The translations under genes were made by a program, and so were the position numbers. Positions 803 to 40,749 of a stretch of DNA of 42,571 nucleotides are shown here, piece after piece. This stretch comes from Colwellia polaris (GTDB taxonomy: Archaea > Nanohalarchaeota > Nanosalinia > Nanosalinales > Nanosalinaceae), in NCBI GenBank assembly GCA_047617785.1, contig JBLGBK010000008.1:1-42571 (forward strand). The letters run 5' to 3'. Every line of letters begins with the position of its first letter. Positions within the stretch are counted from its first letter, which is position 1. The notes beneath the pieces are model-generated. The model saw only the letters and a program-made list of their open reading frames with translations, ran no database searches and was not told the origin of the DNA.

Positions 803-2074
803 TTAGAATCTAACTGAGATCTCAGGATCATCAATATCGCCACTTATCTCGAAATTCATCCCGGGTGATAGAACAGAACTAAGCCCCATATACTGCATAG
901 TATTGACCATAGTCTCTTGATCCGTTCCTGCCTTCAAACGCTCCATGGCGGTCTCTGCAGTTTCATCCGCTATACTTAGACTTTCTCTCATCTCTCTGTA
1001 TTCCATAAGTTCTCCTATATGGGTAAGTGTGGCTTTGGCAAGTTCCATCATTTCATCATCCTCTAGATTGAAAAGTGGAGAGGTCTTCCTATTATCTATA
1101 AACCAACTTCCTTCTTTTGGAGGGAAGTTTAACTCTCCTGAGGTGGAGTCAAGGTGATACATTCTATCTTCGTCGCGTTTGTAAAATGGCACAGTATGGT
1201 GTCCGTTATTTGGCAGTAATGTTGATTCGACATCCTCTAGTTCTTCTAGAGTAAAGGCCAAGTAATTAGCATTTCCAGAAGGAGGGCCACCTATCGCCTC
1301 CATCGCGAGTTCAGCCCATATAAGTGCGGTGTTTCCTATTCTTTCTTCGAAATCTTGTTCTCTAATATCTGTATTCGCCTCTTCTTCTGCCCAGTCGTAG
1401 ATCATGTTTGCTATATCCATCCAGGTGTCGCCTTCTTTGACGTAGCCGCCGTCATCACTGAATTCAGCGGTTTCGGATAGTACGTTTTCTCGGTGTTGTG
1501 TGCGTAGTTTCGTGAATAGTTCTCGGTCTTCGATCCATGTTTGTTGAAGTGCTTGTTCTGGAGTGGTTTCTACACTGAATGTTTCCTCAAATGTGTATGT
1601 TTCGCTATGGTTATGTTCTTCGTCGTTGACGGATAGTTCGAGGTGGAGTTGGTTGTTGCCGGGGAGAAGTTGTTCTGTTGGGAGTATATATTCTCCGTCT
1701 TCTCCTTCTTCGAGTTCGTCTAGTACTTCGTTGTAAAGTCCGGAGTCTTCGAGTAGTTCATTGCTGTAGTCCTTGTTGTCTCTGATTATGTATGCGTTCT
1801 GTATTTCTGCGTTGAGTAGTGTGGTTTCATCGCCTAGTTGTCGTTCTATTCCGGCTGTGAAACTGTAATTGTCTGTCTGGGTTGCGTCAATACTGTTTTT
1901 GTGGTCGCTTATCTGACTGTATTCTGGGGTAGGCTTGTCTGTACTTCTTCCGCTATTTCCGTTATTTTCGGTATCTTCGTCACCTTCTAGCATGTTGGTA
2001 CATCCGGCTAGACCTACTGTGCCTGCTGTACCGGCGGCTTCGAGTAAGCTTCTTCTGCTTATTCCATCAGACAC
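803..2074 (-). CDS. Tat-signal lipoprotein, acidic; possible degenerate transglutaminase-like C-terminal domain
   Basis: N-terminal SRRSLL twin-arginine motif, an h-region and an LAGC lipobox; GTG start. Confidence 0.75.
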   Translation of the reverse strand: MSDGISRRSLLEAAGTAGTVGLAGCTNMLEGDEDTENNGNSGRSTDKPTPEYSQISDHKNSIDATQTDNYSFTAGIERQLGDETTLLNAEIQNAYIIRDNKDYSNELLEDSGLYNEVLDELEEGEDGEYILPTEQLLPGNNQLHLELSVNDEEHNHSETYTFEETFSVETTPEQALQQTWIEDRELFTKLRTQHRENVLSETAEFSDDGGYVKEGDTWMDIANMIYDWAEEEANTDIREQDFEERIGNTALIWAELAMEAIGGPPSGNANYLAFTLEELEDVESTLLPNNGHHTVPFYKRDEDRMYHLDSTSGELNFPPKEGSWFIDNRKTSPLFNLEDDEMMELAKATLTHIGELMEYREMRESLSIADETAETAMERLKAGTDQETMVNTMQYMGLSSVLSPGMNFEISGDIDDPEISVRF

Positions 2075-2995: not shown

Positions 2996-5900
2996 ATGAG
3001 GTTCAAGGCAGCTACAGCGCTCTTATGCGTACTTATGATAACAGGTTTTGCTTTTGCATATGAATCAGAAAGTACAGGTCCTGGAGGTAGTAATAACACT
3101 ACTCCTGGAGGTAGTAATAATACTACTGATGGCGACCCCGAGGATCCTGATGATTCGACCTCTACTGTGACTTGTAACAACGGTCAGGATGATAACAGTG
3201 ATGGTTCTACAGACATAGGAGATGGCTGCGTAAAGCCTTACTACAATGACTCTGTTGAGGGAATGATATGGGAATCCCACCTTGTATCAGTAATGGAGGG
3301 GTTCAGTTCTGATATAAGCGATAATAGCTCAGAAAGCTACAACGTTAACCCATCAACTACTGAAGCATTTTTCTTTTCAGGTTTTGTACAGCAAGGAAGA
3401 GACTCCTCCAACCGAGATTATGACTCTGGAAATGGGAGATCTGTAACTTTAAACTGGGTTGATGCGGCGCGAGCAGAAGATGACGCCTACGGTTTTGGAT
3501 ATCCGAAATCTGGGACTTTCCAAGACAGTGATTTCGGAAGCTATGATGGTCAAGACGTAGTTATAACAAATGGGAGAGTTATTGATGTACCTCATGATAA
3601 CTCAGAAGTCTGCGGAAACGGATTGGAGGAAAACACCGACGACGACGATAAAGTAGGAGATGATCCAAATCGGGAAAGTGCTACAACCGACTGCAAGAAA
3701 GATTATGGAGAAGTAAACGAAATATATGATAGAAGTATACCTTACGAACAGCCTCCTTGTGAAGGGGACTATGGTTTTAATGGACAAACGGTTAATAAGA
3801 CATGCGACTGTGATGAATCTTCCTGTAGTGGAAGCGGATGTACCAGCGGAAGCTGCAGCGATGGTAGTTGCTCGGCATCAGTAGAGGTAAACTGCAGTAT
3901 TGACGAAGACAACTCGGCTCAAGAAGGAAACCACTACTTCAGACCTGATGGAGATAGCATCATAAAATATGAATGTCAGGATGATGGTAATCCTGAAGGA
4001 ACGTACAGCGATCAAACAGACTGTAGTGTAAGCGGATGTAGTTCAAGCTGGAGCACGCCGTCTCACTCCTGCGATAACCCTGGAGGATGTAGCGCTGATG
4101 GTGACGATGCAGAAGCATCTGATGACTGTGAAGCAGGAGATGATAACAGAAACTTTCAACAGGTCGGTACAACAGATTGCAGCAATCATGATGTAGTGCA
4201 TGGAGGAGGAGACAAAAACAGGAATAGAGCAGACAATGATCCTGCGGCAACTTTCACCTCCTTCACAGCCCACAGCGACAGTTCATGGGGTTCGGCATAT
4301 ATGGAGGGCGGTGACAGTCAATCGGGCGGCGATTATGAAGGAAGTGTTTGGTGTGGTTACGATAATACTTTAACTGTAAACGCTGATGGACCGGAAGGAA
4401 ACGGCGACGGGTTCGTAGTTATAGATGAAACTCAGGGTTCAGGAACTAGCCGTGTTGTAGCCCGTGAAAGCCCTGATGGTTCCTCAAGCGTAGGTAGAAA
4501 TGTTCATTATGGAAATAATGGTGATGCAACCACTCTAGACAGCACTGATTACATTGGCAGGGCTGACCTAAGCTGTAGCGGCGAGCATAACGTCTGTATA
4601 AAATATGTTGACTTTACAACTGATACAAACAACTGGGATACCGTAAGTGGCGCGGTTCAGGCTAATGTTGAGTTTGAAGCATCCCCTGATGAATCTTACT
4701 CCGTATGTAAAACTATCAATAGGATTAATGAAGAAAACGGGGATGTACGTGGCAACGATCTGATCGACTGTGACTATATGAGTAACGGCCAAAGTTATTC
4801 TCCGCTTCCAGAAGCCTGTGGAGACGAACCTGACGAACATCTAATGATGATGGAAGGTCCAGAAGTAGCAGACTCCGCAACGGACGATGAACTACTCCAC
4901 CAACAGGAATGTGTCGACTGGACAGAAAATCCTCAAGACATGTATAATAGAGGACTAGATCAAAACGCATGTGTAATAGCAGGTAAACCTGTTGCAGAAG
5001 GCACAGTAAGAAGCGTAGCTGTTTCCCAAGGTGATGATGGTGGATATGAAGAAAACTTCAGAGACTACGAAAAAGGCACTGTCTCCCCTGATTGGGAAGT
5101 TTGTCTTGATATAAGAGATGACACATCTATAACTACAAGCTACCACGATGAAGAATACAACTACCGTTACGATGACCAGTCCAACCAGGGATACGGAGGT
5201 CAATGGTATGACCTAGATGATGAGAAAGTAAATACCTACTTAAGATCGAACAAAAACAATCTTCCAGAAAGCGTAACCACAAACATAAGAAGCGGGCAGA
5301 ATACCTACATCGATTACTACTATCAGGAAAATCCAAATCCTAGAGATTCAACATATAACCCTGAAGGTAATAGAGAAGGTACAGCAATACTCGCAGATTG
5401 TGGACCTCTACTTCCAGCTTGTGGAAACGAGAATGATGATCCGCAGCAAGGTATAAACGGTGAAGAAGGCACATACTTTGCATTCCTTCAGGAAACGTAT
5501 AATGGAGAACCTGTCAGAGATGAAGATTATCATCCACAGGGTGAAAATTCGGAAACCGGGATCAATCCTCGATTTAATCCTGCAGGAACTATTAACATGA
5601 TTAAAAGCCGGTCGGATCAGCTAACTCCGGGCACATATGATTATGATAACGAATTCAGCGGTATTGAATGGTACAGAGATACCCAAGTGGATCAAGATAG
5701 CGCCGTTCAGTATGCTTATACAAAATACCAGACCTGGTCTATAGCAGCTACAGGAGTGCCTTATCCTCCTTTCGGAGCACAGGAAATAGGTAACTATGTC
5801 AGAGGCAACGAAGGTGTTTACTACAGAGAAGACTCTAGTGCAGATAGAGGCCAAGATCCAAACTCTCAAACCATAGATAAGACAGAAAGGGCATTTGGTA

Positions 5901-7597
5901 ACTCTCTTGCAGTTGTGGCTCAAAGATCTGGAATATCGGATAATCAAGGAAACGCCATCTCAGAAGGAGAGGGGTACTGGATAGATCCTGATGATATGCA
6001 CTCAGAGTGGCGTAGTGGAAATATTGCAGGGATTGCAGGACTCAATCCTGATCCAGACTCCGAAGGATGGAGAAACCTTCTAACCTTCAAAGTAGATCTT
6101 ACAGGCCCCGATGCAGGTATCGGATATGATCTAGGTCAGCACCCTGAGTACGGTCTGAATAATGATGAAGTAGTGGAGCAAAGACAGAACGGTAAGACCG
6201 TATTCGCCGATATTTACTGGGAATCTCAGTATCAGGGAGACTCCAGTATACCTAGTTCCCTACAGGAACCGGTATGTGGAGATGATCAGAATGAATACCT
6301 GTTAGAAGAATTAGGAGAAGTGAATAACTCTGCAAGATATGACGGAAACTACGCATGTACAACAACCACTGAAGTGTGTTACGACAGTGGTGCTGATGGT
6401 AAACGACTCTTCAACAGAGAATCCTACAGAGACACAAATGATTTCTCAGAAAGTGAAGGAAGAACAAAGAATGATGAAGAAACCTGTAGAGAGTACGACT
6501 GGTCTGCTTCTAGATTTAGCGGGGTTAGAAAAGATTACTTCCCAGGATGGTACGATCAGGACTTCAGAGAACAGTACTGTAGAGAAAACACTCTATACGA
6601 GGAAGAAGGTGTAAGATGGTTCGAGGCCAGTACAGTTGAAAATAATCCTCACGCATTCACTGGTGGTATCGATGATGACTGGAACGAATACGTGGATGAC
6701 AAACTTGGAAATCAGGTAGATCCTTACAAATCCCGGCCTGATCAAAGCTCTTGGAGCAGTACAGAAACACCGGTACCAACAGGTACAAATGGAGAAAATA
6801 TGGCAACTAAAGGATTCTGTGGAGGAGATGATGATGCAGAGTATCTGGTAACTCAGGATGCCTCAACAAGTATCTTTGAATCGGATAACACGGTCCAAGG
6901 TGTTGCTACCGGACCTGATGTTTGTGTGGCTGATGGGGAAGTGATTGCAAGTAATCAGGAGGATGTAAACAGCGTTGAATATGAAGATAGTGATGGAAAC
7001 TGGCAGCCAATGACAGGAACCGACTCACGTAGACTTGTTCAAGAGGGTAGACGTATACGTCTAAACTATGATGACGATGCCAGAGAAGCAACATGTTTCG
7101 CAGGTAGCTTCCTAGAAGATTGGCCTGTTGTATTCCAAGAGAAGACAGTTAGTGTTCCAGAAGGAAATACAGTAACGACAACCTTCAGGCTAATCAATCC
7201 TGATGAACAGGAAATAGAATACGAAGTAGAAATGGATACCACTACCGATAGTTCCGTATCAGGCGCCGGTCTCGACAGCTTCACGTCCCTAGTCGATCAG
7301 GATGGTCAAACAGAGTTTACTACCGAGGTTCCCGCTAGAAGCGCAAAAAGATATCAGGTTGAGATTAGAGGAGGTAATACTGAAATCTCAGATCCGGATG
7401 ATAATTATGTCAGGGTCTTTGCTGATAGTACCGATGACAGGATAACAGGAAGTGACCGTGTCGGCGTTCAGGTTACCGAACCATCATCTACGGGCGCAGG
7501 AAGACAAGCTGATTCGCTGAATGAAGTACCGGGATTAATGCCGGTGCAGCTGCTTACAATCGTGATGCTTGCTCTAGCTGCAGTATTTATTTCTTAA
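2996..7597 (+). CDS. 1533-aa acidic Cys-rich cell-surface protein with a C-terminal VPGL+TM (archaeosortase-like) anchor
   Basis: Signal peptide; CNNGQDDNSDGSTDIGDGC Ca-binding-type motif; repeated CG(G)D(D/E)xxE(Y/H)L modules; Ig-like C-terminal segment; ends EVPGLMPVQLLTIVMLALAAVFIS. Confidence 0.85.
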   Translation: MRFKAATALLCVLMITGFAFAYESESTGPGGSNNTTPGGSNNTTDGDPEDPDDSTSTVTCNNGQDDNSDGSTDIGDGCVKPYYNDSVEGMIWESHLVSVMEGFSSDISDNSSESYNVNPSTTEAFFFSGFVQQGRDSSNRDYDSGNGRSVTLNWVDAARAEDDAYGFGYPKSGTFQDSDFGSYDGQDVVITNGRVIDVPHDNSEVCGNGLEENTDDDDKVGDDPNRESATTDCKKDYGEVNEIYDRSIPYEQPPCEGDYGFNGQTVNKTCDCDESSCSGSGCTSGSCSDGSCSASVEVNCSIDEDNSAQEGNHYFRPDGDSIIKYECQDDGNPEGTYSDQTDCSVSGCSSSWSTPSHSCDNPGGCSADGDDAEASDDCEAGDDNRNFQQVGTTDCSNHDVVHGGGDKNRNRADNDPAATFTSFTAHSDSSWGSAYMEGGDSQSGGDYEGSVWCGYDNTLTVNADGPEGNGDGFVVIDETQGSGTSRVVARESPDGSSSVGRNVHYGNNGDATTLDSTDYIGRADLSCSGEHNVCIKYVDFTTDTNNWDTVSGAVQANVEFEASPDESYSVCKTINRINEENGDVRGNDLIDCDYMSNGQSYSPLPEACGDEPDEHLMMMEGPEVADSATDDELLHQQECVDWTENPQDMYNRGLDQNACVIAGKPVAEGTVRSVAVSQGDDGGYEENFRDYEKGTVSPDWEVCLDIRDDTSITTSYHDEEYNYRYDDQSNQGYGGQWYDLDDEKVNTYLRSNKNNLPESVTTNIRSGQNTYIDYYYQENPNPRDSTYNPEGNREGTAILADCGPLLPACGNENDDPQQGINGEEGTYFAFLQETYNGEPVRDEDYHPQGENSETGINPRFNPAGTINMIKSRSDQLTPGTYDYDNEFSGIEWYRDTQVDQDSAVQYAYTKYQTWSIAATGVPYPPFGAQEIGNYVRGNEGVYYREDSSADRGQDPNSQTIDKTERAFGNSLAVVAQRSGISDNQGNAISEGEGYWIDPDDMHSEWRSGNIAGIAGLNPDPDSEGWRNLLTFKVDLTGPDAGIGYDLGQHPEYGLNNDEVVEQRQNGKTVFADIYWESQYQGDSSIPSSLQEPVCGDDQNEYLLEELGEVNNSARYDGNYACTTTTEVCYDSGADGKRLFNRESYRDTNDFSESEGRTKNDEETCREYDWSASRFSGVRKDYFPGWYDQDFREQYCRENTLYEEEGVRWFEASTVENNPHAFTGGIDDDWNEYVDDKLGNQVDPYKSRPDQSSWSSTETPVPTGTNGENMATKGFCGGDDDAEYLVTQDASTSIFESDNTVQGVATGPDVCVADGEVIASNQEDVNSVEYEDSDGNWQPMTGTDSRRLVQEGRRIRLNYDDDAREATCFAGSFLEDWPVVFQEKTVSVPEGNTVTTTFRLINPDEQEIEYEVEMDTTTDSSVSGAGLDSFTSLVDQDGQTEFTTEVPARSAKRYQVEIRGGNTEISDPDDNYVRVFADSTDDRITGSDRVGVQVTEPSSTGAGRQADSLNEVPGLMPVQLLTIVMLALAAVFIS
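3080..3127 (+). repeat. 24-bp tandem repeat x2 encoding PGGSNNTT
   Basis: cctggaggtagtaataacactact / cctggaggtagtaataatactact (1 mismatch). Confidence 0.9.
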
Positions 7598-7684
7598 ATT
7601 TTCCTTATTTTTCCTCAATAACTCAGATGATGTAATTTTCCCCATTTGATTGAAAAACGTAGAGTGGCTACATTTACCTGGATT

Positions 7685-8455
7685 ATGAAGCCTGCTGTCG
7701 AAATCTTAAGATCAATGATTGAGAAAGGACAGCATGAGATTGATAGAGAGACAGAGGGTCTACTGCTTTCCAGCCTATCCGCAGGCCTAGATATCGGGTT
7801 TGGCCCTCTCCTAATGGGGGTTATACTCACTCTGTCTGTTGGTAGTTACGGTGATCTACAGACTGAACTGCTTCTTGCCTCTGCCTACTCAGTTGGATTC
7901 ATATTCGTTATTCTTGGAAGATCAGAATTATTTACGGAACATACTACGTTAGCCGTTATGCCGGTAATTGATGGAAAAGCAACTCTCAAACAGTTAGGAA
8001 GGCTATGGGGATTAGTATATGCAGGAAATATCCTAGGAGGATTGATATTTACAGGCCTTGCAGTTCTTCTGATGCCAGGACTGGGGGTAGTAAGCCCTGA
8101 AGCATTCGGAACTATTGCAAGTAAACTTGTTAGCCATTCTGCTCGATGGCTTCTAATTGCCGGAATATTTGCTGGCTGGCTTATGGGCCTTCTTGCTTGG
8201 TTGGTGTCATCAGCTGAGAATACGATTGGAAGAGTATTCTTTATCTGGATGGTTACAGCTACAATAGGTATGCTCCATTTGCCTCATAGCATCGCAGGAA
8301 ATGTAGAGGTGCTCTTTGGGCTTTTTACAACAAGCAGCGTAACCCTTGTAGACTACTTGTCGTTCTTATCGTTATCAACAATAGGTAATGCGGTAGGAGG
8401 AGCATTTTTCGTAGGGATAATGAAATATAGCCACATAATTAGAGGAGCAAAATAG
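7685..8455 (+). CDS. Formate/nitrite transporter (FNT) family protein
   Basis: GRSELFTEHT, GNILGG, HSIAG and TIGNAVGG motifs; about 6 TM helices. ATG 7685 preferred over TTG 7646. Confidence 0.9.
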   Translation: MKPAVEILRSMIEKGQHEIDRETEGLLLSSLSAGLDIGFGPLLMGVILTLSVGSYGDLQTELLLASAYSVGFIFVILGRSELFTEHTTLAVMPVIDGKATLKQLGRLWGLVYAGNILGGLIFTGLAVLLMPGLGVVSPEAFGTIASKLVSHSARWLLIAGIFAGWLMGLLAWLVSSAENTIGRVFFIWMVTATIGMLHLPHSIAGNVEVLFGLFTTSSVTLVDYLSFLSLSTIGNAVGGAFFVGIMKYSHIIRGAK

Positions 8456-8597
8456 ATTTACACTGCTGCATGAACAGATAAATATTTAAAATTCGCTCTT
8501 GAGTTCCTAGATATGACTGGTGAATCTGTTCCTCAACGCAGTCTTGAATTTTAGAGGAAGTTTTCTCAGCCGCTGGTTTACACAATTCTATGTGATT

Positions 8598-8726
8598 TCT
8601 ATGATACGACACCTAGATTCAACTATGGGTGGACGCGTTCCGCTCACGACTAACTAAGTTCAATAAGGACTTGGTTAAACAATTTTCAAAATCTGAAATA
8701 ACCTACGCTTTTCTCGGTGAAATGTT
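8598..8726 (+). promoter_or_regulatory. Structured 5' leader of the Pro-free ProRS, with an 18-aa uORF (8601-8657, MIRHLDSTMGGRVPLTTN) and two hairpins
   Basis: Hairpins at 8626-8646 and 8651-8677; SD GGTGA at 8716-8720; blocks homologous to the leader at 31230-31335. Confidence 0.6.
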
Positions 8727-9944
8727 TTGAGACGCAGCGATCTATTTGCTACTGTCTCCAAGGAGAAAGAAGCAGACCTTGACTCCCGTAGCGCCGAACT
8801 CATGGTCAAAGCTGGCTTGGTGAAGAACTTTGGTTCAGGAACATGGAGCTACACGCACCTTGGCAAGAAAGTACTCGACAACATAGAAGAAGTAGTCAGA
8901 GCAGAGATGGATGAGATAGCACAGGAGGTGAAGATGCATCAGCTTCAGACCTCAGACATCTGGAAACAGAGCGGTCGATGGGAGAATTTCGAAGATGATG
9001 AGTTCTTCACGTTGGAGAACCGTGATCAAAAGGATTTCACTATCGCAGCTACTCATGAAGAAGCTGCTACGGAGTTCGCAAAGGACTACGTCAGGAGCTA
9101 CCGTGACCTCGATTTGTCATTCTACCAGATAGGTAGGAAGTTCAGAGATGATCGCGCTCGGAAAGGTTTACTGCGTGCAAAGGAATTCATTATGAAAGAT
9201 GCATATAGCTTCCATTCGGACAGAGATTCTCTGGACAAAAAGTACCGTGAATTCACTTCGGCATACCGCAGAGTATTTGACAAGTTAGGTCTGGATTACT
9301 CCGAGGTCAGTGCCGACAATGGTTCTATGGGCGGAAGCAAATCTCATGAGTTTATGGCGGAATCTGAGATCGGGAGCGACATATATAGGAAATGTCAGAA
9401 CTCGGATTGTCTCTACGCATCCAAAGATCTTGAGAAAAAGAATTGCCAGCGATGTGGTACGCAGCTCAGGGAGGTTAAAGGTATCGAGATAGGTCACTGT
9501 TTCAAGTTGGATGACAGGTACAGTAGTTCTATGGATTTGACCTACACGGATGAGAAAGGAGAAGAGCAAGACGTATTAATGGCTTCCTATGGTATTGGAG
9601 TCTCAAGATTGGTTTCAGCCATCATTGAACAGAACCACGATGAAAGAGGGATAACCTGGAATAGAACTATTTCCGCATTTAAGACTGCGGTTATCATCGC
9701 CCGACACGAGGATGAGGTAGAGGAGAAAGCAGAAGAGATCTACAATCATCTACAGGAGAAAGGAAACCAAGTGCTTCTCTACGATGACGCTCAATCGGTT
9801 GGTGAGCAGTTCGCTGAAGCAGATCTGATAGGGATCAACAGGAAGATCATTCTCGGAAACAATTATCTGGAGAATAAGGTAATCGAGATTGAGAACCGTA
9901 ATGGAGAGGTAAGGGAGGTGGAACGCATCGAGCAAATTTTATGA
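8727..9944 (+). CDS. proS: Prolyl-tRNA synthetase, bacterial type, short form (no INS editing domain, Cys4 insert); contains no proline
   Basis: SGRW, THEE, FYQIGRKFRD, EFIMKDAYSFH, GSMGG-SHEF, IEIGHCFKL, YGIGVSR and an anticodon domain (FAEADLIG). TTG start just downstream of GGTGA. Confidence 0.9.
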   Translation: MRRSDLFATVSKEKEADLDSRSAELMVKAGLVKNFGSGTWSYTHLGKKVLDNIEEVVRAEMDEIAQEVKMHQLQTSDIWKQSGRWENFEDDEFFTLENRDQKDFTIAATHEEAATEFAKDYVRSYRDLDLSFYQIGRKFRDDRARKGLLRAKEFIMKDAYSFHSDRDSLDKKYREFTSAYRRVFDKLGLDYSEVSADNGSMGGSKSHEFMAESEIGSDIYRKCQNSDCLYASKDLEKKNCQRCGTQLREVKGIEIGHCFKLDDRYSSSMDLTYTDEKGEEQDVLMASYGIGVSRLVSAIIEQNHDERGITWNRTISAFKTAVIIARHEDEVEEKAEEIYNHLQEKGNQVLLYDDAQSVGEQFAEADLIGINRKIILGNNYLENKVIEIENRNGEVREVERIEQIL

Positions 9945-10108
9945 GGTATTCCGACTTCTCGAAAGTTCTATTCTTTTTTCTAATTTCACGATGTAGAACT
10001 CTTTTAGGGCAACTGCTTGATGATTATAGGCAAAAGGCTCTGAGAGATTAACTGATACTTTCAAAACATTTCAAGCTGAAAACCGTTGATAGAGGTATTC
10101 AAAATACT

Positions 10109-11587
10109 ATGTCACAGGAACTCGGTATAACGGTTAAGAAAGATCAAGATCCTTCAGAATGGTACACGCAAATAGTACAGAAAGCAGATTTAGCTGACTA
10201 TGCACCTGTCAAAGGTTGTATGGTCATCAAACCGTATGGAATGAAGCTTTGGGAGTCTATTAAGGAAGAATTCAACTCTAAGATACAAGATACAGGAGTT
10301 GAAAACGCATACTTCCCACTTTTCATACCAGAAAGCTATCTTGAGAAAGAAAGTGATATTGTAGAAGGATTCGATCCAGAAGTTGCGTGGGTGACACACG
10401 GGGGCAACAGTGAACTAGAAGAACGCCTTGCAGTACGCCCAACAAGCGAATCAATCATTGCGCCTTTCATGAGCGACTGGATTCGCAGTCATCGAGACCT
10501 TCCGATGAGGCTTAATCAATGGGCAAACGTGGTCCGATGGGAGGCAACCGACACAAGACCGTTCCTCCGCACCAGAGAATTCCTTTGGCAGGAAGGCCAC
10601 ACTGCTCACGCGTCCGAGGAAAGTGCTGACAAGGAAACAATGTTGAGGCTTGAACAGTATCAAGAAGTAATTGAAGACCATCTCGCTATTCCAAGCATTC
10701 TTGGATACAAGCCAGAACACGATAAGTTCCCGGGTGCAAAATACACTACAACAATAGAAACATTGATGCCTGACGGTAAATCAATTCAATCGGGAACTTC
10801 ACATCAGCTTGGACAGCACTTTGCAGAAGCCTTCGACATAACATACGAAGACAGAGACTCAAGTGAACAGACAGCTTGGACAACAAGCTGGGGTCTCTCC
10901 ACAAGAACAGTTGGAGCACTAATCATGGCTCATGGAGACGACGACGGACTACGACTACCTCCAAACGTCGCACCAATTCAGATTGTAGTAGTGCCGATCT
11001 TCCAAGAAGACAACAAAGAAGAGGTGCTCGACTACGCAGAGGAAATCAGCGACGAACTTGAGGAACAAGGTATCCGGGTAGAGTTCGACTACAGAGACCA
11101 CAGAACGCCAGGATACAAGTTCAACGAATGGGAACTCAAAGGAGTACCTCTCAGAGTCGAAGTTGGACCAAACGAAATGGAAGACGAAGCAGTCACCACA
11201 GTCAGAAGAGACACAGGTGACAAAGAAATGGGTCTCGACCGTGAAGAGTTCATCGAAGAAGCAGGAGACACGCTAGAAGATATCCAGCAAACACTATATG
11301 AACAGTTGGAAGAATATCAGGAAGAAAACATTCGAGAAGCAGACTCAAAGAACGAAATCCTCGCAACCATAGGAAAGAACCGCGGATATGTCAAGACCAG
11401 ATGGTGTGGCAAAGAAGGCTGTGAAGCAGAAATTAAAGATGAAGTCAGCGCAGAAATCGTAGTTCTGCCATTCAGAGAAGATTCCAAACCAGCAACCATC
11501 CAAGAACGTGAAGAGGAAATCGACGGCGAATGCTCAATCTGTGGGGAAGAAGCAGAACGCTGGGCATACTTCGCAAAGAACTACTGA
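10109..11587 (+). CDS. proS: Prolyl-tRNA synthetase, archaeal/eukaryotic type
   Basis: RPTSE, NQWANVVRWE, FLRTREFLWQEGHT, HGDDDGLRLPP, WELKGVPLR, and a C-terminal Zn domain ending FAKNY. Confidence 0.97.
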   Translation: MSQELGITVKKDQDPSEWYTQIVQKADLADYAPVKGCMVIKPYGMKLWESIKEEFNSKIQDTGVENAYFPLFIPESYLEKESDIVEGFDPEVAWVTHGGNSELEERLAVRPTSESIIAPFMSDWIRSHRDLPMRLNQWANVVRWEATDTRPFLRTREFLWQEGHTAHASEESADKETMLRLEQYQEVIEDHLAIPSILGYKPEHDKFPGAKYTTTIETLMPDGKSIQSGTSHQLGQHFAEAFDITYEDRDSSEQTAWTTSWGLSTRTVGALIMAHGDDDGLRLPPNVAPIQIVVVPIFQEDNKEEVLDYAEEISDELEEQGIRVEFDYRDHRTPGYKFNEWELKGVPLRVEVGPNEMEDEAVTTVRRDTGDKEMGLDREEFIEEAGDTLEDIQQTLYEQLEEYQEENIREADSKNEILATIGKNRGYVKTRWCGKEGCEAEIKDEVSAEIVVLPFREDSKPATIQEREEEIDGECSICGEEAERWAYFAKNY

Positions 11588-12496: not shown

Positions 12497-13591
12497 TTGA
12501 GAATATTAATGCTTAATTATGAGTTTCCTCCTTTAGGTGGTGGAGCTGCAAATGCCAATCGGTATATGTTGAAGAAAATGGCTGATAAAGATGTTGAGAT
12601 AGATTTAGTAACTTCGTCTCTGGAAGAAGAGGAGAAAGAATCCTTTTCTGAAAATATTACTGTACATAGAGTTGATGTTAATAAAAAGGATATTCATTAT
12701 TGGCGTCAAAGAGAAATACTTCTTTATATGGTTAGAGGCTTTAGACGTTCTAAAGAACTAATTGAGGAAAAAGACTATGATTTAATTCATGCATGGTTTG
12801 GATTTCCATGCGGTTTTATGTCTCAGCACCTAGAACTACCCTATATTGTAAGTTTAAGAGGTAGCGATGTGCCAGGTTATAATAACCGTTTTTCTTTCCA
12901 TTATGTTCTTCTCAAGCCTGTAATTAGGTCTGTATGGAGAAATGCAGAGGCAATAGTAGCTAACTCCTCAGGATTACGTGATTTGGCTCGGGAAACAATG
13001 GACATTAACATAGATATCATCCCAAATGGGGTTGATGTATCTCAATTTGCTCCGAGGGCATCTGAAAAGACTCGATTCCGAGTTCTAACGGTTGCACGTT
13101 TGATAGAGCGTAAAAGAGTTGGAGATATTATTGAGGCGGTTAAAGGCCTTGATGTTGAGCTGGTGATTGTTGGGGAAGGAAATAAGAAGAGCAAATTAAA
13201 GGCAATGGTTTCAAAGCAAGGTTTGGATGATAAAATTGACTTTAAAGGTTATGTAGAGCATGATAAGTTGCCTAAGATATATGAGTCCGCAGATCTGTTC
13301 GTCCTACCTTCTCTTAATGAGGGTATGAGTAATACGCTTCTAGAAGCTATGGCTGCAGGTCTTCCTATAGTAACTACTGATACGGGAGGAACGGAGGAGC
13401 TTATAGATGGCAATGGCAAGATTGTTGAAAAGGAGAATTCGTCCGAAATTAGATCTGCTATCCGGAATTATATCGATGATCCTGTGATGCACGAAAAACA
13501 TCAATCTAGATCAAGAGAAATTGCAAAAAGAATGAGTTGGGAAAATAAAGCCGAAGACTACATGGAACTATATAGGAAGTGTATTCAATGA
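12497..13591 (+). CDS. GT4 glycosyltransferase
   Basis: YEFPPLGGG, IIPNGVD, ADLFVLPSLNEGMSNTLLEAMAAGLP. Confidence 0.93.
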   Translation: MRILMLNYEFPPLGGGAANANRYMLKKMADKDVEIDLVTSSLEEEEKESFSENITVHRVDVNKKDIHYWRQREILLYMVRGFRRSKELIEEKDYDLIHAWFGFPCGFMSQHLELPYIVSLRGSDVPGYNNRFSFHYVLLKPVIRSVWRNAEAIVANSSGLRDLARETMDINIDIIPNGVDVSQFAPRASEKTRFRVLTVARLIERKRVGDIIEAVKGLDVELVIVGEGNKKSKLKAMVSKQGLDDKIDFKGYVEHDKLPKIYESADLFVLPSLNEGMSNTLLEAMAAGLPIVTTDTGGTEELIDGNGKIVEKENSSEIRSAIRNYIDDPVMHEKHQSRSREIAKRMSWENKAEDYMELYRKCIQ

Positions 13592-14292
13592 ACTTGGAAG
13601 AGATAATTAGTCATAATATAGATTTAATGCAGAAAAACTGGGCTGAAAAATACAGAAATTTGTCTGCTTCCAGAATATCGATGAGAAAGGAATTAAGGCC
13701 TGTTTTAGAACGTTATTCTAGCGGTAAATTGCTTGATGCAGGAGCAGGGAACCAGGTTTTCAGAGATATTGTAGAGGATCAGTGCGAAATATATGAGAGT
13801 CTGGATTTAAAGGACTCAGAAGATATCTCATATGTCCAAGATATAAGAGACACTGATCTAGATTCAGAGAGTTTCGACACTGTTTTCTGCCGTAATGTAT
13901 TAGAACACATCAGGAACCCTGGTGACGCCTTAGATGAGATGTCAAGAATAACATCTCAAGAAGGCAAAATAATTTTGACACTGCCTCATTTAGCCTATCT
14001 GCATAATCAACCTGATGATTATTACCGTTTTACTCGTTATGGGGTTAGAGAACTTGTTGAGGACACTAATTTACAGGTGGTGGAAATGCGGGAGGCTGGC
14101 GGTCTTTTCAGCTTTCTAGCTTATTCCTTATCGACCTTCGGTTTCGGAATTGCGTTCAGCATTCCAATCATAGCTAATATTCTTTACTATGCAAATCTTC
14201 CTCTTCAGCATCTGGCGATATTACTTGACAATTTAACTGGAAATAAAACATACTTTCCACTGAACTATGTTATAGTATTGAGTAAGACTTAA
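13588..14292 (+). CDS. Class I SAM-dependent methyltransferase (type 11-like)
   Basis: LLDAGAG, SFDTVFC..VLEH, HNQPDDYYRFT. ATG 13588 overlaps the upstream stop (ATGA). Confidence 0.88.
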   Translation: MNLEEIISHNIDLMQKNWAEKYRNLSASRISMRKELRPVLERYSSGKLLDAGAGNQVFRDIVEDQCEIYESLDLKDSEDISYVQDIRDTDLDSESFDTVFCRNVLEHIRNPGDALDEMSRITSQEGKIILTLPHLAYLHNQPDDYYRFTRYGVRELVEDTNLQVVEMREAGGLFSFLAYSLSTFGFGIAFSIPIIANILYYANLPLQHLAILLDNLTGNKTYFPLNYVIVLSKT

Positions 14293-15209
14293 TTCTCTAA
14301 AAAAACTCTGAAGGGCTTGTTAAATCTAAAAAACGACTGATGGTTGTCTAAAGTATTTTCAATACTCTGATTAACTTCTAAAACTTCTCTTTTAGGGTGA
14401 GAGAGTCTTATGAACTGTGAAGGGTTTCCTTTCATGGAGTGTCTTACAAGATATTTCACTTTGAAGTCGTATCTTGATAGAAAGCTCATTAAATCTTCTA
14501 AACTACTGTCATAGAATTTAATCTTACGCGGATGCATTTCGAGGAAGAGTTTAACATTGTTCTCGCTCAAGGTGTTTTTCATTCCTTTGAGGATATTGTG
14601 CTCATACCCTTCGACATCCATTCGTACAACATCTATATTTTCCTCAATAACGTTGTCTAAAGACTGAACCTCGACTTCTAGATCCTTTTCTTCTCCTTCA
14701 TAATGTATATGGCGAGTGTTAGTGATCTTTGATCTTGTGAAATATTCTTTCTTTCTTGAAGATCCGATAGCTTTGTTTAATGTCTTAATATTGCTGTAAT
14801 CGTTTAGTTCTATATTTTCATTAAGTCGCTGATATGTTTCGGGATCTGGCTCTATGCTGAAAACTTTTCCACTGTTTCCTGCCTCTTTAGCCGCCATCAG
14901 GGTGTAGTAACCTATGTTCGATCCTATATCCGCTATAGCGTCTCCTTCTTCTATTTCAGACCTGAAAATTTTCGTAGATTCTGCCTCTCTTATGTTCTGG
15001 AGAAAGAGGTCTTTCTCAAGTCCGATATTAGTTGCATCAAGAATCATTGAAGAATCTTCGATTTCTCTTTGTACTTTCAAAAACTGTTTATTCTGTGTTT
15101 CCAAACGGTAATATAATTCTCTGTAGATGGAATGCTTATAGCACTCTCTAACTGTTTTTCCCATACCTACCTTTTTGAATAATCCAAGAACTCTGCTAGA
15201 GAGCGTCAT
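14289..15209 (-). CDS. FkbM-family methyltransferase
   Basis: DIGSNIGYYT, SIEPDP, VRMDVEGYE, FLEMHP. Confidence 0.92.
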   Translation of the reverse strand: MTLSSRVLGLFKKVGMGKTVRECYKHSIYRELYYRLETQNKQFLKVQREIEDSSMILDATNIGLEKDLFLQNIREAESTKIFRSEIEEGDAIADIGSNIGYYTLMAAKEAGNSGKVFSIEPDPETYQRLNENIELNDYSNIKTLNKAIGSSRKKEYFTRSKITNTRHIHYEGEEKDLEVEVQSLDNVIEENIDVVRMDVEGYEHNILKGMKNTLSENNVKLFLEMHPRKIKFYDSSLEDLMSFLSRYDFKVKYLVRHSMKGNPSQFIRLSHPKREVLEVNQSIENTLDNHQSFFRFNKPFRVFLEN

Positions 15210-29357: not shown

Positions 29358-31229
29358 TCAGCGGACAGTTTGTTTCTGCCCGCCTACAATTAGGTCTTCG
29401 GGTTCGTAGAGTACATCTCCTTCGATATAATCTACACCATGTTCTTTCGCCATCATTTCTCCGGGGGTTACTCCGTTTTCTATCAACTTAGTCATCTCGG
29501 ATCTGTACTGTTCGCCGCTGTACAATTCTCCTGTGCTCATCTCATCAACGCCGTCAGCAAGAATGTCTATTAATCCTTCTTCCATGTTAGTTCCTAACCA
29601 TGCATCTTGAACTGTGATATTTTCCTCTTCGTTGATTGTGTATTGAAGACCGTTGTTTTCCAGGTAGTTCTCATCATTTTCATGATCTGCGTACACGCCG
29701 TTCACTCCGAGACGAAGGTCTTTAGCATGGGAGTTTGAGATGCCCAGGTTTTCAGATGCGAACTCCTGGATTTCACGCCATCTCCGGAAAGCTCCGATCT
29801 GTGTCGCTATAGCTTCGTTTCTGAAAGGATTGTTGCCAACATCTCTGTATTCTAGAGCCATGTCTGCAGGTCTCTCGCGCCATGGTTCCCAGACTGCAGT
29901 TGTGTCTGCTTTGAACTGTTTCTTTCCTTCTTCCTTGAAAGCTTCGTCGTCCATATCCGGGAAGATTTCTTCGTCACGATAGTCAACTACGCCAGTATAT
30001 TCTGTGGAGTTGCCTTCTTCATCGAATACTATTACTTCGCCGCCGAACATCTCCCTTTCGATGAATTCCTTGAATGGCATAATGCTGTCTTTGTCCTCAA
30101 GATCCCAGTTCTCCTTTCCTACTCGTATTAATGCATTATCATCTTCATCTATGAATTCGACTCTGTCAGAAAGGACATCGTAGTCTTCGTCTTGATCATA
30201 GTCTTCATCGTCCACGACTTTGACTTTTGAAGCTTCAACCTGTGCGAAATTCCATTCAGAGCTCGCTGAGAAGTCTTGATCTTCTTCAATGCTTTCTATA
30301 TTTGCGAGTGCTGGTGAGAATCCTGCTTTACTATTCTTAGTTATGTAATCGCCGGGTTCTTCTTTGTTGTTCTGTCCCTGGCGATCCCAAAGTGTAAGGA
30401 AGCTTTCGTCGTATGCCTTATCCCTTCCGTTCAGAGTCTCTATAACAGTTTTTCCTTCATGGTTGTACATAACAGGTGAGCTCATGAATGGTCCGTAAAA
30501 TAGAGGGCTGAGCGCAGACATTCCGATTTCGTCTTGCCCTCCTTTGAATTCGCTCAACCATTTATCTACGTCTACTTCTTGATCATGCTCTTCGTCATAT
30601 ATCTTTGGGCGCATAGTGACCTGTATTGATCCGGTTCCTGCGACTGGCTCTACGTCGTAGGTGTTTCCGAACATTTCGTACTTTGGTTCTTGGAAGAAGT
30701 GTTCGCGTCCTACGGTGTCGTAGAAATTACCGGTCATCATACGGGTTAGCATCCCTTGTCTTCTGAACTGGACATCGTCTCTTGGCGCGGAGTCAAGAGT
30801 TGTCTGCTCTACCTGATTAAGGTTCTTGAGGGCATCGTCTACTGTGTTAACGATGCCGGTTACATCTTCTTTTTCAGGGCCTACATCGTATTCGCTGGCT
30901 CCTTTATATTCGTCGAATTCGAGTTCTACAAGCTTGACGATGTTGTCTTCATGCGTGTCAACTCTTTCCGTATTTATTGCCTGTTCAATTTCTGCTAGTC
31001 TCTGAAGGTGTTCTAAGCTGAAATCGCTGTGCACAGGGATAGCATCTGCAGATATTGGTTTTTCTACAGGATGTTCTTCTTCAACACCTATCATATTGTG
31101 GTGTTGAAGGTTTTCGCCTGTATCTCTGTCGCTGCTCCCTATCTGTCTGCGTTTCTCTTCTGCAAGTTCCTCGTTGATGTCGTCCCAGTCGTATTTGCTG
31201 AATCTTTGGGAATCAGAGCCGGCAGACAT
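29358..31229 (-). CDS. Glutamate-cysteine ligase-fold (GCS2/GshA-like) protein, paralog 2
   Basis: GVEEE, PKY, GSIQV, FMSSP, GRD, LEYRD, GVTPGE. ATG 31229 follows an AGGTG SD. Confidence 0.65.
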   Translation of the reverse strand: MSAGSDSQRFSKYDWDDINEELAEEKRRQIGSSDRDTGENLQHHNMIGVEEEHPVEKPISADAIPVHSDFSLEHLQRLAEIEQAINTERVDTHEDNIVKLVELEFDEYKGASEYDVGPEKEDVTGIVNTVDDALKNLNQVEQTTLDSAPRDDVQFRRQGMLTRMMTGNFYDTVGREHFFQEPKYEMFGNTYDVEPVAGTGSIQVTMRPKIYDEEHDQEVDVDKWLSEFKGGQDEIGMSALSPLFYGPFMSSPVMYNHEGKTVIETLNGRDKAYDESFLTLWDRQGQNNKEEPGDYITKNSKAGFSPALANIESIEEDQDFSASSEWNFAQVEASKVKVVDDEDYDQDEDYDVLSDRVEFIDEDDNALIRVGKENWDLEDKDSIMPFKEFIEREMFGGEVIVFDEEGNSTEYTGVVDYRDEEIFPDMDDEAFKEEGKKQFKADTTAVWEPWRERPADMALEYRDVGNNPFRNEAIATQIGAFRRWREIQEFASENLGISNSHAKDLRLGVNGVYADHENDENYLENNGLQYTINEEENITVQDAWLGTNMEEGLIDILADGVDEMSTGELYSGEQYRSEMTKLIENGVTPGEMMAKEHGVDYIEGDVLYEPEDLIVGGQKQTVR

Positions 31230-31364
31230 GCGAAGCACCTATTGTGAAAGAGCTGTAGCTAGAAGATTTTGAATTAGTGTGAGAAGTGTCGGTACTTGGG
31301 TAGAACGCGTCCACCCTTCGTTGTCATAGACATACCATACGGGTTAGGACTTAGAAGTTTTAAA
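31230..31364 (-). promoter_or_regulatory. Promoter and structured leader with uORF (31274-31333, MSMTTKGGRVLPKYRHFSH)
   Basis: TTTAAAA box at 31358-31364 about 25 nt before the uORF ATG; hairpin 31298-31316; homologous to the proS leader. Confidence 0.6.
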
Positions 31365-40625: not shown

Positions 40626-40749
40626 GGTCCACTAGCTCAGGGGTTAGAGCACCGTCCTTATAAGGACCTCACACAGAAAAATAGTTTGATCCTGTGTGTT
40701 GCCTCCATGAGTGAGGCGGCGGTCCCGGGTTCGAATCCCGGGTGGACCA
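40626..40749 (+). tRNA. tRNA-Ile(UAU) with a 51-nt intron at 37/38 (intron 40663-40713)
   Basis: Acceptor stem GGTCCAC/GTGGACC+A; D arm GCTC/GAGC; anticodon stem CCGTC/GGCGG with loop CT-TAT-A|A; T arm CCGGG-TTCGAAT-CCCGG; BHB-like helix CTTA/TGAG. Confidence 0.88.

Follow-up and report, generated by a model that had tools for sequence, protein, structure and literature searches.

What would a prolyl-tRNA synthetase gain from containing no proline at all? This question is raised by a gene that we call ProRS2, which lies at positions 8727..9944 on the forward strand of a stretch of 42,571 nucleotides (nt; hereafter the window) that covers positions 1 to 42,571 of contig JBLGBK010000008.1 in assembly GCA_047617785.1, placed by its GTDB lineage in the Nanosalinaceae of the Nanohalarchaeota. 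The call of its open reading frame (ORF), Pfam and TIGRFAM profiles, and solved relatives identify ProRS2 as a bacterial-type prolyl-tRNA synthetase (ProRS) without the INS editing domain. A first-pass annotation, made by a model from the letters of the DNA, had reported that the translation of 405 amino acids (aa) has zero Pro and that the adjacent archaeal enzyme has about 23 in 492 aa. Both counts were borne out: the ProRS2 ORF, which opens with a TTG start codon, encodes no Pro and has no in-frame CCN codon, compared with 13 and 15 CCN triplets when it is read in either of the remaining frames, and the neighbouring gene encodes exactly 23 Pro. The reading that we favour, with a probability of roughly 0.6, is that ProRS2 is a working accessory ProRS whose Pro codons have been purged so that its synthesis needs no Pro-tRNAPro.

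First, a protein of this length without Pro is exceptional in its own genome. We compiled a crude proteome from 741 non-overlapping ORFs, which make up 88% of the 787-kb genome. Pro accounts for 3.37% of its residues; 13.6 Pro would be expected in ProRS2, and a count of zero in 405 aa has p = 9.5e-7. The first-pass annotation had allowed that many long proteins of this genome might lack Pro, which did not prove to be the case, as only two of the 481 ORFs of at least 200 aa do so. The other one is a 332-aa, E/Q-rich, coiled-coil-like protein (G000:C4:140-1138, minus strand; G000 is the window's genome), the next most Pro-poor ORFs are also coiled-coil-like, and several long ones carry 3-5 Pro. 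When every ORF of at least 250 aa was screened for each of the 20 residues, an unbiased set of 7580 tests, four zero-count cases emerged for residues with a frequency of at least 2.5%, and ProRS2 was the strongest of them.

Second, the Pro-free state is kept up across a whole clade. Among the 120 best matches listed from a search of 5.8 billion protein clusters, the closest 64 clusters (59-100% identity) have no Pro in 59 cases, one in four cases and two in one case, and eight shorter fragments of the same group have none (six fragments) or one (two fragments). Close orthologs that retain a normal Pro content, an outcome which had been considered beforehand as speaking against the idea, were thus not seen. 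In the sources the members of this Pro-free group are named as Nanohaloarchaea, among them Candidatus Nanohalobium constans, to which NCBI assigns the ortholog P0041 with its zero Pro, and Nanosalina sp. J07AB43. Among the same listed matches, the next group (about 49% identity) has 15-21 Pro, the sister clade 13-21, and the haloarchaeal (Salarchaeum) and bacterial relatives 13-25, with Salarchaeum itself at 13-15; the sister clade (P0065-P0085) was not found among the 70 genomes of the phylum. A tree of 111 rows gathers all 63 Pro-poor rows into a single branch, with an SH-aLRT value of 100. Two rows with a single Pro, located at the conserved PTHEE position, are basal and stand outside a 61-row clade with a support of 95, and because these basal rows keep the PTHEE proline, the last and most conserved proline seems to have been lost one step after the others. 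As for the other stray prolines, they belong to an N-terminal extension, to the vicinity of a C-terminus or to a partial record.

The upkeep of this state can also be followed in the substitutions themselves. By parsimony on a 90-row tree, 2 of 3955 changes inside the Pro-free clade are changes to Pro, compared with 24 of 1504 in the sister clade; at the sister-clade rate about 63 would be expected (binomial p = 5e-25, the related rows not being fully independent), and Pro gains are about 30-fold rarer in the Pro-free clade. At the DNA level, 11 ortholog genes from genomes of the class contain no in-frame CCN codon versus 242 and 251 in the other frames, an absence that spans 45% to 59% GC. 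Mutations towards Pro are plentiful, since 120 of the 405 ProRS2 codons are one base away from CCN. In addition, contigs from four DNA runs, whose cover of the gene is patchy, show five differences, four of them synonymous and one leading from Q to K, and within this cover none of the five creates a Pro codon. We also observed broken or duplicated ProRS2 pieces in one locus (L059, G061:C3:565000-584999), at about 6935-7507 and 13395-14390; one comprises 190 aa with no Pro and the other 331 aa with one Pro, the first 95 residues being in another frame. These pieces may reflect decay or an assembly error, the G061 bin being 79% complete with 7% contamination.

Third, Pro-free ProRS did not arise only once. 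A search of 1.84 billion proteins yielded 147 further representatives with a median of 3.8% Pro, and in this wider set four more INS-less ProRS with no Pro were found (P0124, P0132, P0175 and P0212; 37-44% identity). P0132 belongs to a clade in which all four clusters (P0132, P0393, P0394 and P0395) have zero Pro at 60-70% mutual identity. No close relative of P0175 was found in the database, and scans of genome contigs and metagenome contigs with P0393 returned only relatives of at most 53% identity. Pro-free rows occupy four separate places on two trees, and forcing a single clade on all 16 Pro-free rows costs 134 units of log-likelihood (p-AU 6e-6), so that a single origin is rejected. Judged by these trees, the second Pro-free clade and the singletons P0124, P0175 and P0212 are of separate origin from the nanohaloarchaeal clade. 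Moreover, the replacements recur, with P317 changed to A in four Pro-free lineages and P44 changed to H in three. The remark in the first-pass annotation that no complete purge was known in an aminoacyl-tRNA synthetase (aaRS) has thus been overtaken, as several further natural Pro-free ProRS exist. Among 80 metagenome ProRS loci, none has fewer than 7 Pro.

Together these observations bear on the simplest alternative, namely that Pro was never selected against and that the gene lost it by chance, through base composition, through halophilic adaptation or through avoidance of CC at the DNA level. It is true that some other ORFs are Pro-free or Pro-poor, all of them coiled-coil-like, and that the surface proteins of the window's genome are strongly Lys-poor. 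However, this explanation would have to accept p = 9.5e-7 for one gene and then the retention of the state through about 3955 substitutions, CC is common in the other frames, Salarchaeum keeps its 13-15 Pro, and the Pro-free state has independent origins. We regard the explanation as refuted on these grounds and give it a negligible likelihood. Selection against the cognate residue in ProRS2 is well supported; the earlier claim that the absence of Pro results from selection and not from decay or chance is upheld by the clade-wide upkeep, the rarity of Pro gains and the convergence, as well as by the purifying selection, the retained catalytic columns and the second synthetase described below.

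Fourth, ProRS2 carries the signs of a working enzyme. In the three closest pairs, in which synonymous sites are unsaturated, dN/dS is 0.06-0.07; outside the closest pairs the ratio is of limited value because synonymous sites are saturated. We used 188 ordinary homologs with at least 10 Pro as a comparison set, in which 60 columns are at least 90% conserved. Of the conserved non-Pro columns, 49 of 56 are kept in at least 90% of the Pro-free clade, and of the conserved Pro columns (query positions 44, 129, 317 and 371) none of the four is kept; at the latter positions, where the rest of the family shows 90-100% proline, the clade carries H/N, D, A and N/Q, respectively. Counted over the ordinary homologs, 15 positions have Pro in at least 30% of the sequences. 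Across a 99-row alignment (A1) that includes the query, 22 columns are invariant. In agreement with what had been noticed at first sight, the catalytic motifs THEE, KFRD, EF.MKDAYSF, EIGH and YGIG.SR are intact, and the Pro replacements listed at the time are visible in alignments to E. faecalis and P. aeruginosa-type chains: VPND/TPAD has become KEAD, LPL THL, MP MH, LPA/QPA QTS, GPTHEE AATHEE, a further LPL LDL, WP..APF WN..SAF, and GCP/GIP GIN. We read ProRS2 as a working enzyme, which would act on proline and tRNAPro.

The architecture of the protein points in the same direction. The start has been placed correctly, since residue 1 of ProRS2 falls on position 1 in the bacterial ProRS profiles and on residues 1-2 in solved ProRS chains. 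The class II core (PF00587, E 7.3e-34) covers residues 94-303 and the HGTP anticodon-binding domain (PF03129, E 4.2e-12) residues 322-396. ProRS2 passes the equivalog profile TIGR00409 (proS_fam_II) with 413.4 bits over a cut-off of 306.7 and stays under the cut-offs of two other bacterial ProRS profiles (NF006625, 448 versus 558; NF008979, 372 versus 550), which it does because the INS segment is missing. The INS editing domain, a YbaK-like domain (PF04073) between motifs 2 and 3, was not found in ProRS2 by profile search, and the alignment to 2j3l jumps over chain residues 232-400. At the usual INS site the alignment shows instead a short insert (9393..9455, forward strand) with four cysteines (C223, C228, C240 and C243), all of which reach a conservation of at least 90% over the 99 rows of A1 and which probably form a zinc knuckle. 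An AlphaFold2 model (mean pLDDT 94.5, pTM 0.92) has bacterial ProRS as its best Foldseek matches, with TM scores of 0.94 (query) and 0.87 (target) for 2i4l. ProRS2 is therefore a member of the INS-less ProRS subgroup, a recognised natural form represented by 2i4l. Like this enzyme from Rhodopseudomonas palustris, it combines a class II core, a short insert in place of INS and a C-terminal anticodon-binding domain; unlike the 2i4l type, to which it is only about 32% identical, it scores below the NF008979 cut-off of 550, is Pro-free and coexists with an archaeal-type ProRS.

These assignments can be set against the notion that ProRS2 has changed its function, so that it supplies prolyl-adenylate or Pro-tRNA to another pathway or uses another substrate, its Pro-free state being a structural or regulatory constraint. 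Several orthologs carry only the NCBI label 'aminoacyl--tRNA ligase-related protein', the protein falls under two of three bacterial ProRS cut-offs, and, as detailed below, it is dispensable in most relatives and evolves faster than the housekeeping gene. However, ProRS2 retains its anticodon-binding domain together with almost all the catalytic columns that are invariant in the family, the absence of the INS segment accounts for the low scores, and another substrate would explain neither the avoidance of proline in particular nor the matching depletion of Lys in a lysyl-tRNA synthetase. We consider a changed function very improbable.

The lack of the INS editing domain invites another interpretation, in which an INS-less ProRS mischarges Ala or Cys when proline is low and a Pro-free enzyme escapes the resulting error-feedback loop. 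Two structures with a Cys-adenylate analogue, the INS-less 2i4n and the archaeal 1nj1, are among the fold matches, as judged by their titles, and the argument applies to any cognate residue and would hence fit a Lys-poor synthetase as well. Nevertheless, an enzyme would seldom be inactivated by occasional substitutions at some 14 sites, which would leave only weak selection for a full purge, and ordinary INS-less ProRS keep their Pro: the 188 homologs of the comparison set have at least 10 each, and all 33 Patescibacteria INS-less loci that we examined have 8-16. Insulation from errors thus appears improbable as the driving force.

We return to the reading of ProRS2 as an accessory enzyme, which agrees with its distribution. 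Our survey covered 70 genomes of the class, which are all the genomes available for the phylum, 28 of them of high quality. ProRS2 is present in 14 of the 70 (7 of the 28). Its own family shows it in 13 of 49 genomes, and the other four families, with 20 genomes in all, in none; within genera its occurrence is patchy, and it was not found in several single-contig genomes. The archaeal-type ProRS, in contrast, is present in 58 of 70 genomes and in 27 of the 28 of high quality, which marks ProRS2 as the accessory of the two. In the window this housekeeping enzyme is encoded at 10109..11587 (forward strand; TIGR00408, 577 bits with a cut-off of 437; ProRS-C_1 domain). The two genes adjoin only in the window's genome and in G044 and G053; elsewhere they are about 55 kb apart or lie in unrelated contexts. 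In the same pairs of genomes, identity to the window's copies is 60-74% for ProRS2 versus 73-92% for the archaeal ProRS, so that ProRS2 diverges faster.

A parallel case came from the other synthetases. Among 13 aaRS families searched in the window's genome, only Pro and Lys have two enzymes, which in the case of Lys are an archaeal class I lysyl-tRNA synthetase (LysRS; C11:19363-20994) and a bacterial-type class II enzyme, LysRS-II (G000:C20:1854-3302, minus strand; loci L067 and L076), the latter encoded outside the window. LysRS-II has 3 Lys in 481 aa compared with 28.7 expected (p = 7e-10), and 46 Arg. A second duplicated synthetase of this genome is thus depleted in its own cognate residue, a comparison that the first-pass annotation had suggested. 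Like ProRS2, LysRS-II is accessory, being present in 21 of the 70 genomes versus 59 for class I LysRS. Its Lys count ranges from 1 to 48 over the 21 copies: the 16 copies that stand beside a class I gene have 1, 1, 3, 3, 3, 4, 4, 5, 7, 8, 8, 11, 12, 14, 15 and 30 Lys, and the five copies where class I was not found have 13, 22, 27, 28 and 48 (Mann-Whitney p = 0.006 between the groups, with related rows and some incomplete genomes). In the LysRS-II tree the Lys-rich copies are basal and the depletion is derived, with one nested exception in G039. One Lys column is invariant in all 21 copies, which fits a depletion of Lys down to an indispensable residue. As a separate observation, the class I LysRS matches in G044, G052, G043 and G050 are full-length apart from one in-frame stop (TAA/TGA) each, and G044 carries LysRS-II as well.

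ProRS2 also appears to have a control region of its own. A 16-nt element, GGTGGACGCGTTCCGC, with inverted half-sites GTGGA-N5-TCCRC, lies at 8628..8643 (forward strand), 83 nt upstream of the ProRS2 start; it is a candidate regulator-binding site, with GGTGGAYRYRTTCYRC as the sequence that a protein would bind. The element occurs within 250 nt upstream of ProRS2 in 8 of 11 orthologs with up to two mismatches and in 10 of 11 with up to four, and it is kept although the flanking genes differ between genomes; at locus L052 (G067) the usual element was not found within 250 nt upstream. In the window's genome there are three copies at up to one mismatch, all of them intergenic and each pointing at a gene 62-84 nt away, and five relatives have one or two copies per genome, with none for a reversed control. 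The second copy, GGTGGACGCGTTCTAC, lies at 31300..31315 (minus strand), 62 nt upstream of an acidic 626-aa ORF without a Pfam family (29358..31238, minus strand); the third, at G000:C19:1567-1582 (minus strand), precedes a 226-aa ORF (809-1489, minus strand) that is glutamine-amidotransferase-like by eye from its GHQ...HPE motif. Taken together, the copies look like a very small regulon. No functional theme was found behind them: the genes are mostly acidic, family-less and, by BLAST, unshared between genomes.

Closer to the gene, an A/T-rich box (TTCAAAATCT, 8685..8694, forward strand), about 32 nt upstream of the start, is a candidate archaeal TATA-like promoter element; similar boxes of the TTCAAAAYCT type recur at a matching position in front of the orthologs and of further genes, LysRS-II and the archaeal ProRS among them. 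GGTGA at 8716-8720 (forward strand) is a candidate Shine-Dalgarno site. A leader peptide or attenuator was considered and rejected, as the upstream spacer, 271 nt in length, contains no ORF in which Pro codons are abundant, and Rfam found in the window only one tRNA. A look-up of RNA runs for positions 8456-11587 found none. The conservation of the upstream element suggests that the transcription of ProRS2 is regulated as well.

An accessory gene with its own upstream element could also have been retained as a resistance copy. According to this explanation, ProRS2 would withstand a natural inhibitor, or an analogue of proline, to which the archaeal-type ProRS is susceptible, and its Pro-free state would allow it to be made after the block, free of misincorporated analogue. 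Inhibitor resistance is known to come about through a divergent second aaRS acquired by transfer, and one source lists natural toxins that act on ProRS and on LysRS (PMC5388404). ProRS2 is of another structural type than the housekeeping ProRS, it is patchy and travels with its upstream element into differing gene contexts, and class I and class II LysRS likewise pair unrelated enzyme types. However, resistance alone does not demand the removal of every Pro, and no inhibitor is known in this habitat. No genes of a biosynthetic cluster or mobile element were recognised beside ProRS2, the neighbourhoods having been compared only with the window's ORFs, and no ProRS2 relative was found on the viral contigs scanned with P0001, P0132 and P0175. 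In addition, the same source gives resistance weak overall support as a driver of aaRS paralogs (PMC5388404). On this evidence a resistance copy is unlikely.

The purge of Pro codons from an accessory ProRS can be understood more readily from the physiology of the organism. Neither the proC product (pyrroline-5-carboxylate reductase, TIGR00112) nor ornithine cyclodeaminase (PF02423) was found in this genome, which is 96.6% complete and in which controls responded, and the organism therefore probably cannot make proline. If proline or charged tRNAPro ran low in such a proline-auxotrophic symbiont, ribosomes would stall on the Pro codons of nearly all mRNAs, and thus also on the 23 of the housekeeping ProRS. 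The mRNA of ProRS2 would still be translated to its end, its share of protein output would rise passively, and charging capacity would go up with it. In this way the cell would be spared a deadlock in which a shortage of Pro-tRNAPro prevents the synthesis of the enzyme that produces it. ProRS2 would thus serve as a starvation-proof backup with a benefit to fitness under starvation. The first-pass annotation had proposed a rescue synthetase for a host-dependent auxotroph; of this, the auxotrophy agrees with our searches, and the link to host dependence turns out to be too simple, given the presence of ProRS2 in only 14 of 70 genomes and the Pro-bearing enzymes of Patescibacteria.

Several observations weigh against the backup reading and account for our reserve. 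The need for ProRS2 is not general, as the gene is missing from most relatives, closed genomes included. If the Patescibacteria that bear the 33 loci mentioned above are host-dependent, this dependence alone does not drive the purge. In three genomes (G054, G055 and G062; 75-82% complete) only ProRS2 was found, which, if real, would make it the sole ProRS and not a backup; since G041, at 92% completeness, shows neither type, assembly gaps evidently hide genes and these cases prove nothing. E. coli-type ProRS prefers C1:G72 in its tRNA. The one tRNAPro gene (GGG) that ARAGORN found in the whole assembly has G1:C72 and A73, which speaks against taking charging by ProRS2 for granted. The two other genes behind the 16-nt element in the window's genome are not Pro-poor (10 Pro in 226 aa and 20 in 626 aa), the LysRS-II of G039 has 30 Lys despite the presence of a class I gene, and any benefit of extra ProRS2 needs proline to be low but non-zero, or recycled.

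A broader reading includes both synthetases and treats cognate-free backup enzymes as a recurrent solution to the self-reference of translation, in which the synthesis of an enzyme is uncoupled from its product and the enzyme acts as a shortage sensor and effector that needs no regulator. It includes that ProRS has been purged on at least two occasions, and probably on four or five, and that a purge is under way in the class II LysRS of the same archaea, down to a single invariant Lys. Taken as a whole, we consider this broader proposition to be evenly balanced.

The surroundings of ProRS2 offer further observations. A formate/nitrite transporter gene (PF01226) lies just upstream, at 7646-8455 (forward strand), and its ortholog in G044 (81% identity) sits between the two ProRS genes. 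Two genes upstream of ProRS2, with the transporter between, a very acidic, Cys-rich ORF of 1533 aa (2996-7597, forward strand) has a hydrophobic N- and C-terminus and is strongly poor in Lys, Leu and Ile; large ORFs related to it precede ProRS2 in G044, G053 and G054. At locus L052 (G067:C40), a 102-aa ORF with no Pro (9546-9854, minus strand) overlaps the ProRS2 start as if co-transcribed. The tRNA that Rfam found in the window is 124 nt long (40626-40749, forward strand; 52.8 bits), was unreported there by ARAGORN and probably contains an intron.

How does ProRS2 compare with systems already described? The alpha subunit of tryptophan synthase, which has no Trp, is the classic case of cognate bias. 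Such bias in the enzymes of amino-acid biosynthesis was described by Alves and Savageau (2005, cited in Fasani and Savageau 2014, PMC4209129), and in the model of the latter article (PMC4209129), recovery from sudden starvation is predicted only if the enzymes that supply an amino acid contain little of it themselves. The logic is the same, in that a supplier of amino acid X is poor in X and can be made during starvation for X, and ProRS2, with fewer cognate residues than the proteome average and with this property conserved in its orthologs, has low cognate bias in the sense used there. That work, however, concerns biosynthetic pathways and a statistical bias; its accessible part uses the word 'synthetase' once, for tryptophan synthetase, and mentions no aaRS (PMC4209129), whereas ProRS2 stands for the tRNA-charging step in an auxotroph and for the total purge of a residue that normally makes up 3-4%. 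Duplicated synthetases are a second point of comparison. The duplicated ThrRS of cyanobacteria is reportedly a stress-specialised second synthetase. Mupirocin-resistant IleRS and the coexistence of class I and class II LysRS in strains of Bacillus cereus and B. thuringiensis and in Streptomyces are further cases (PMC5388404). All share with ProRS2 a divergent second enzyme, often horizontally acquired, that is kept beside the housekeeping copy for special conditions; unlike ProRS2, whose specialisation is its own composition, none is described in the material consulted as lacking its cognate residue.

A third relative is the reprogramming of translation by tRNA depletion, which favours genes without the affected codon when the charged tRNA is scarce. 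In M. tuberculosis, toxin-mediated depletion of tRNATrp is said to cause such codon-dependent reprogramming. There the effect is driven by a toxin and extends over the proteome, whereas the codon-free gene considered here encodes the enzyme that would itself replenish the aminoacyl-tRNA in short supply. The ProRS enzyme family and the principle of cognate bias are already known. Our full-text literature searches brought up no account of either a proline-free ProRS or a lysine-poor LysRS. What appears new is that an aminoacyl-tRNA synthetase has been purged of its cognate residue totally, and in a conserved and convergent manner.

Finally, these results have implications beyond the single locus. 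They document the strength of selection, as a common residue is wholly gone from a 400-aa enzyme, including four positions that are otherwise 90-100% Pro, and has stayed so over thousands of substitutions, and they extend the idea of cognate bias from biosynthesis to tRNA charging, the most self-referential point of gene expression. The convergent changes from P to H, D, A and N/Q show protein designers which substitutions can stand in for conserved prolines, and a natural Pro-free ProRS and a nearly Lys-free LysRS offer parts for codon reassignment, reduced-alphabet proteomes and the bootstrapping of orthogonal translation. Annotation stands to gain too, given that several ProRS2 orthologs are publicly labelled just as an 'aminoacyl--tRNA ligase-related protein'. 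For the organisms themselves, ProRS2 provides a testable handle on the amino acids that are limiting for host-dependent nano-archaea and on the way in which cells with few regulators escape starvation traps; if the broader reading is true, the purged synthetases for Pro and Lys would reveal the limiting amino acids of these symbionts in their natural setting.

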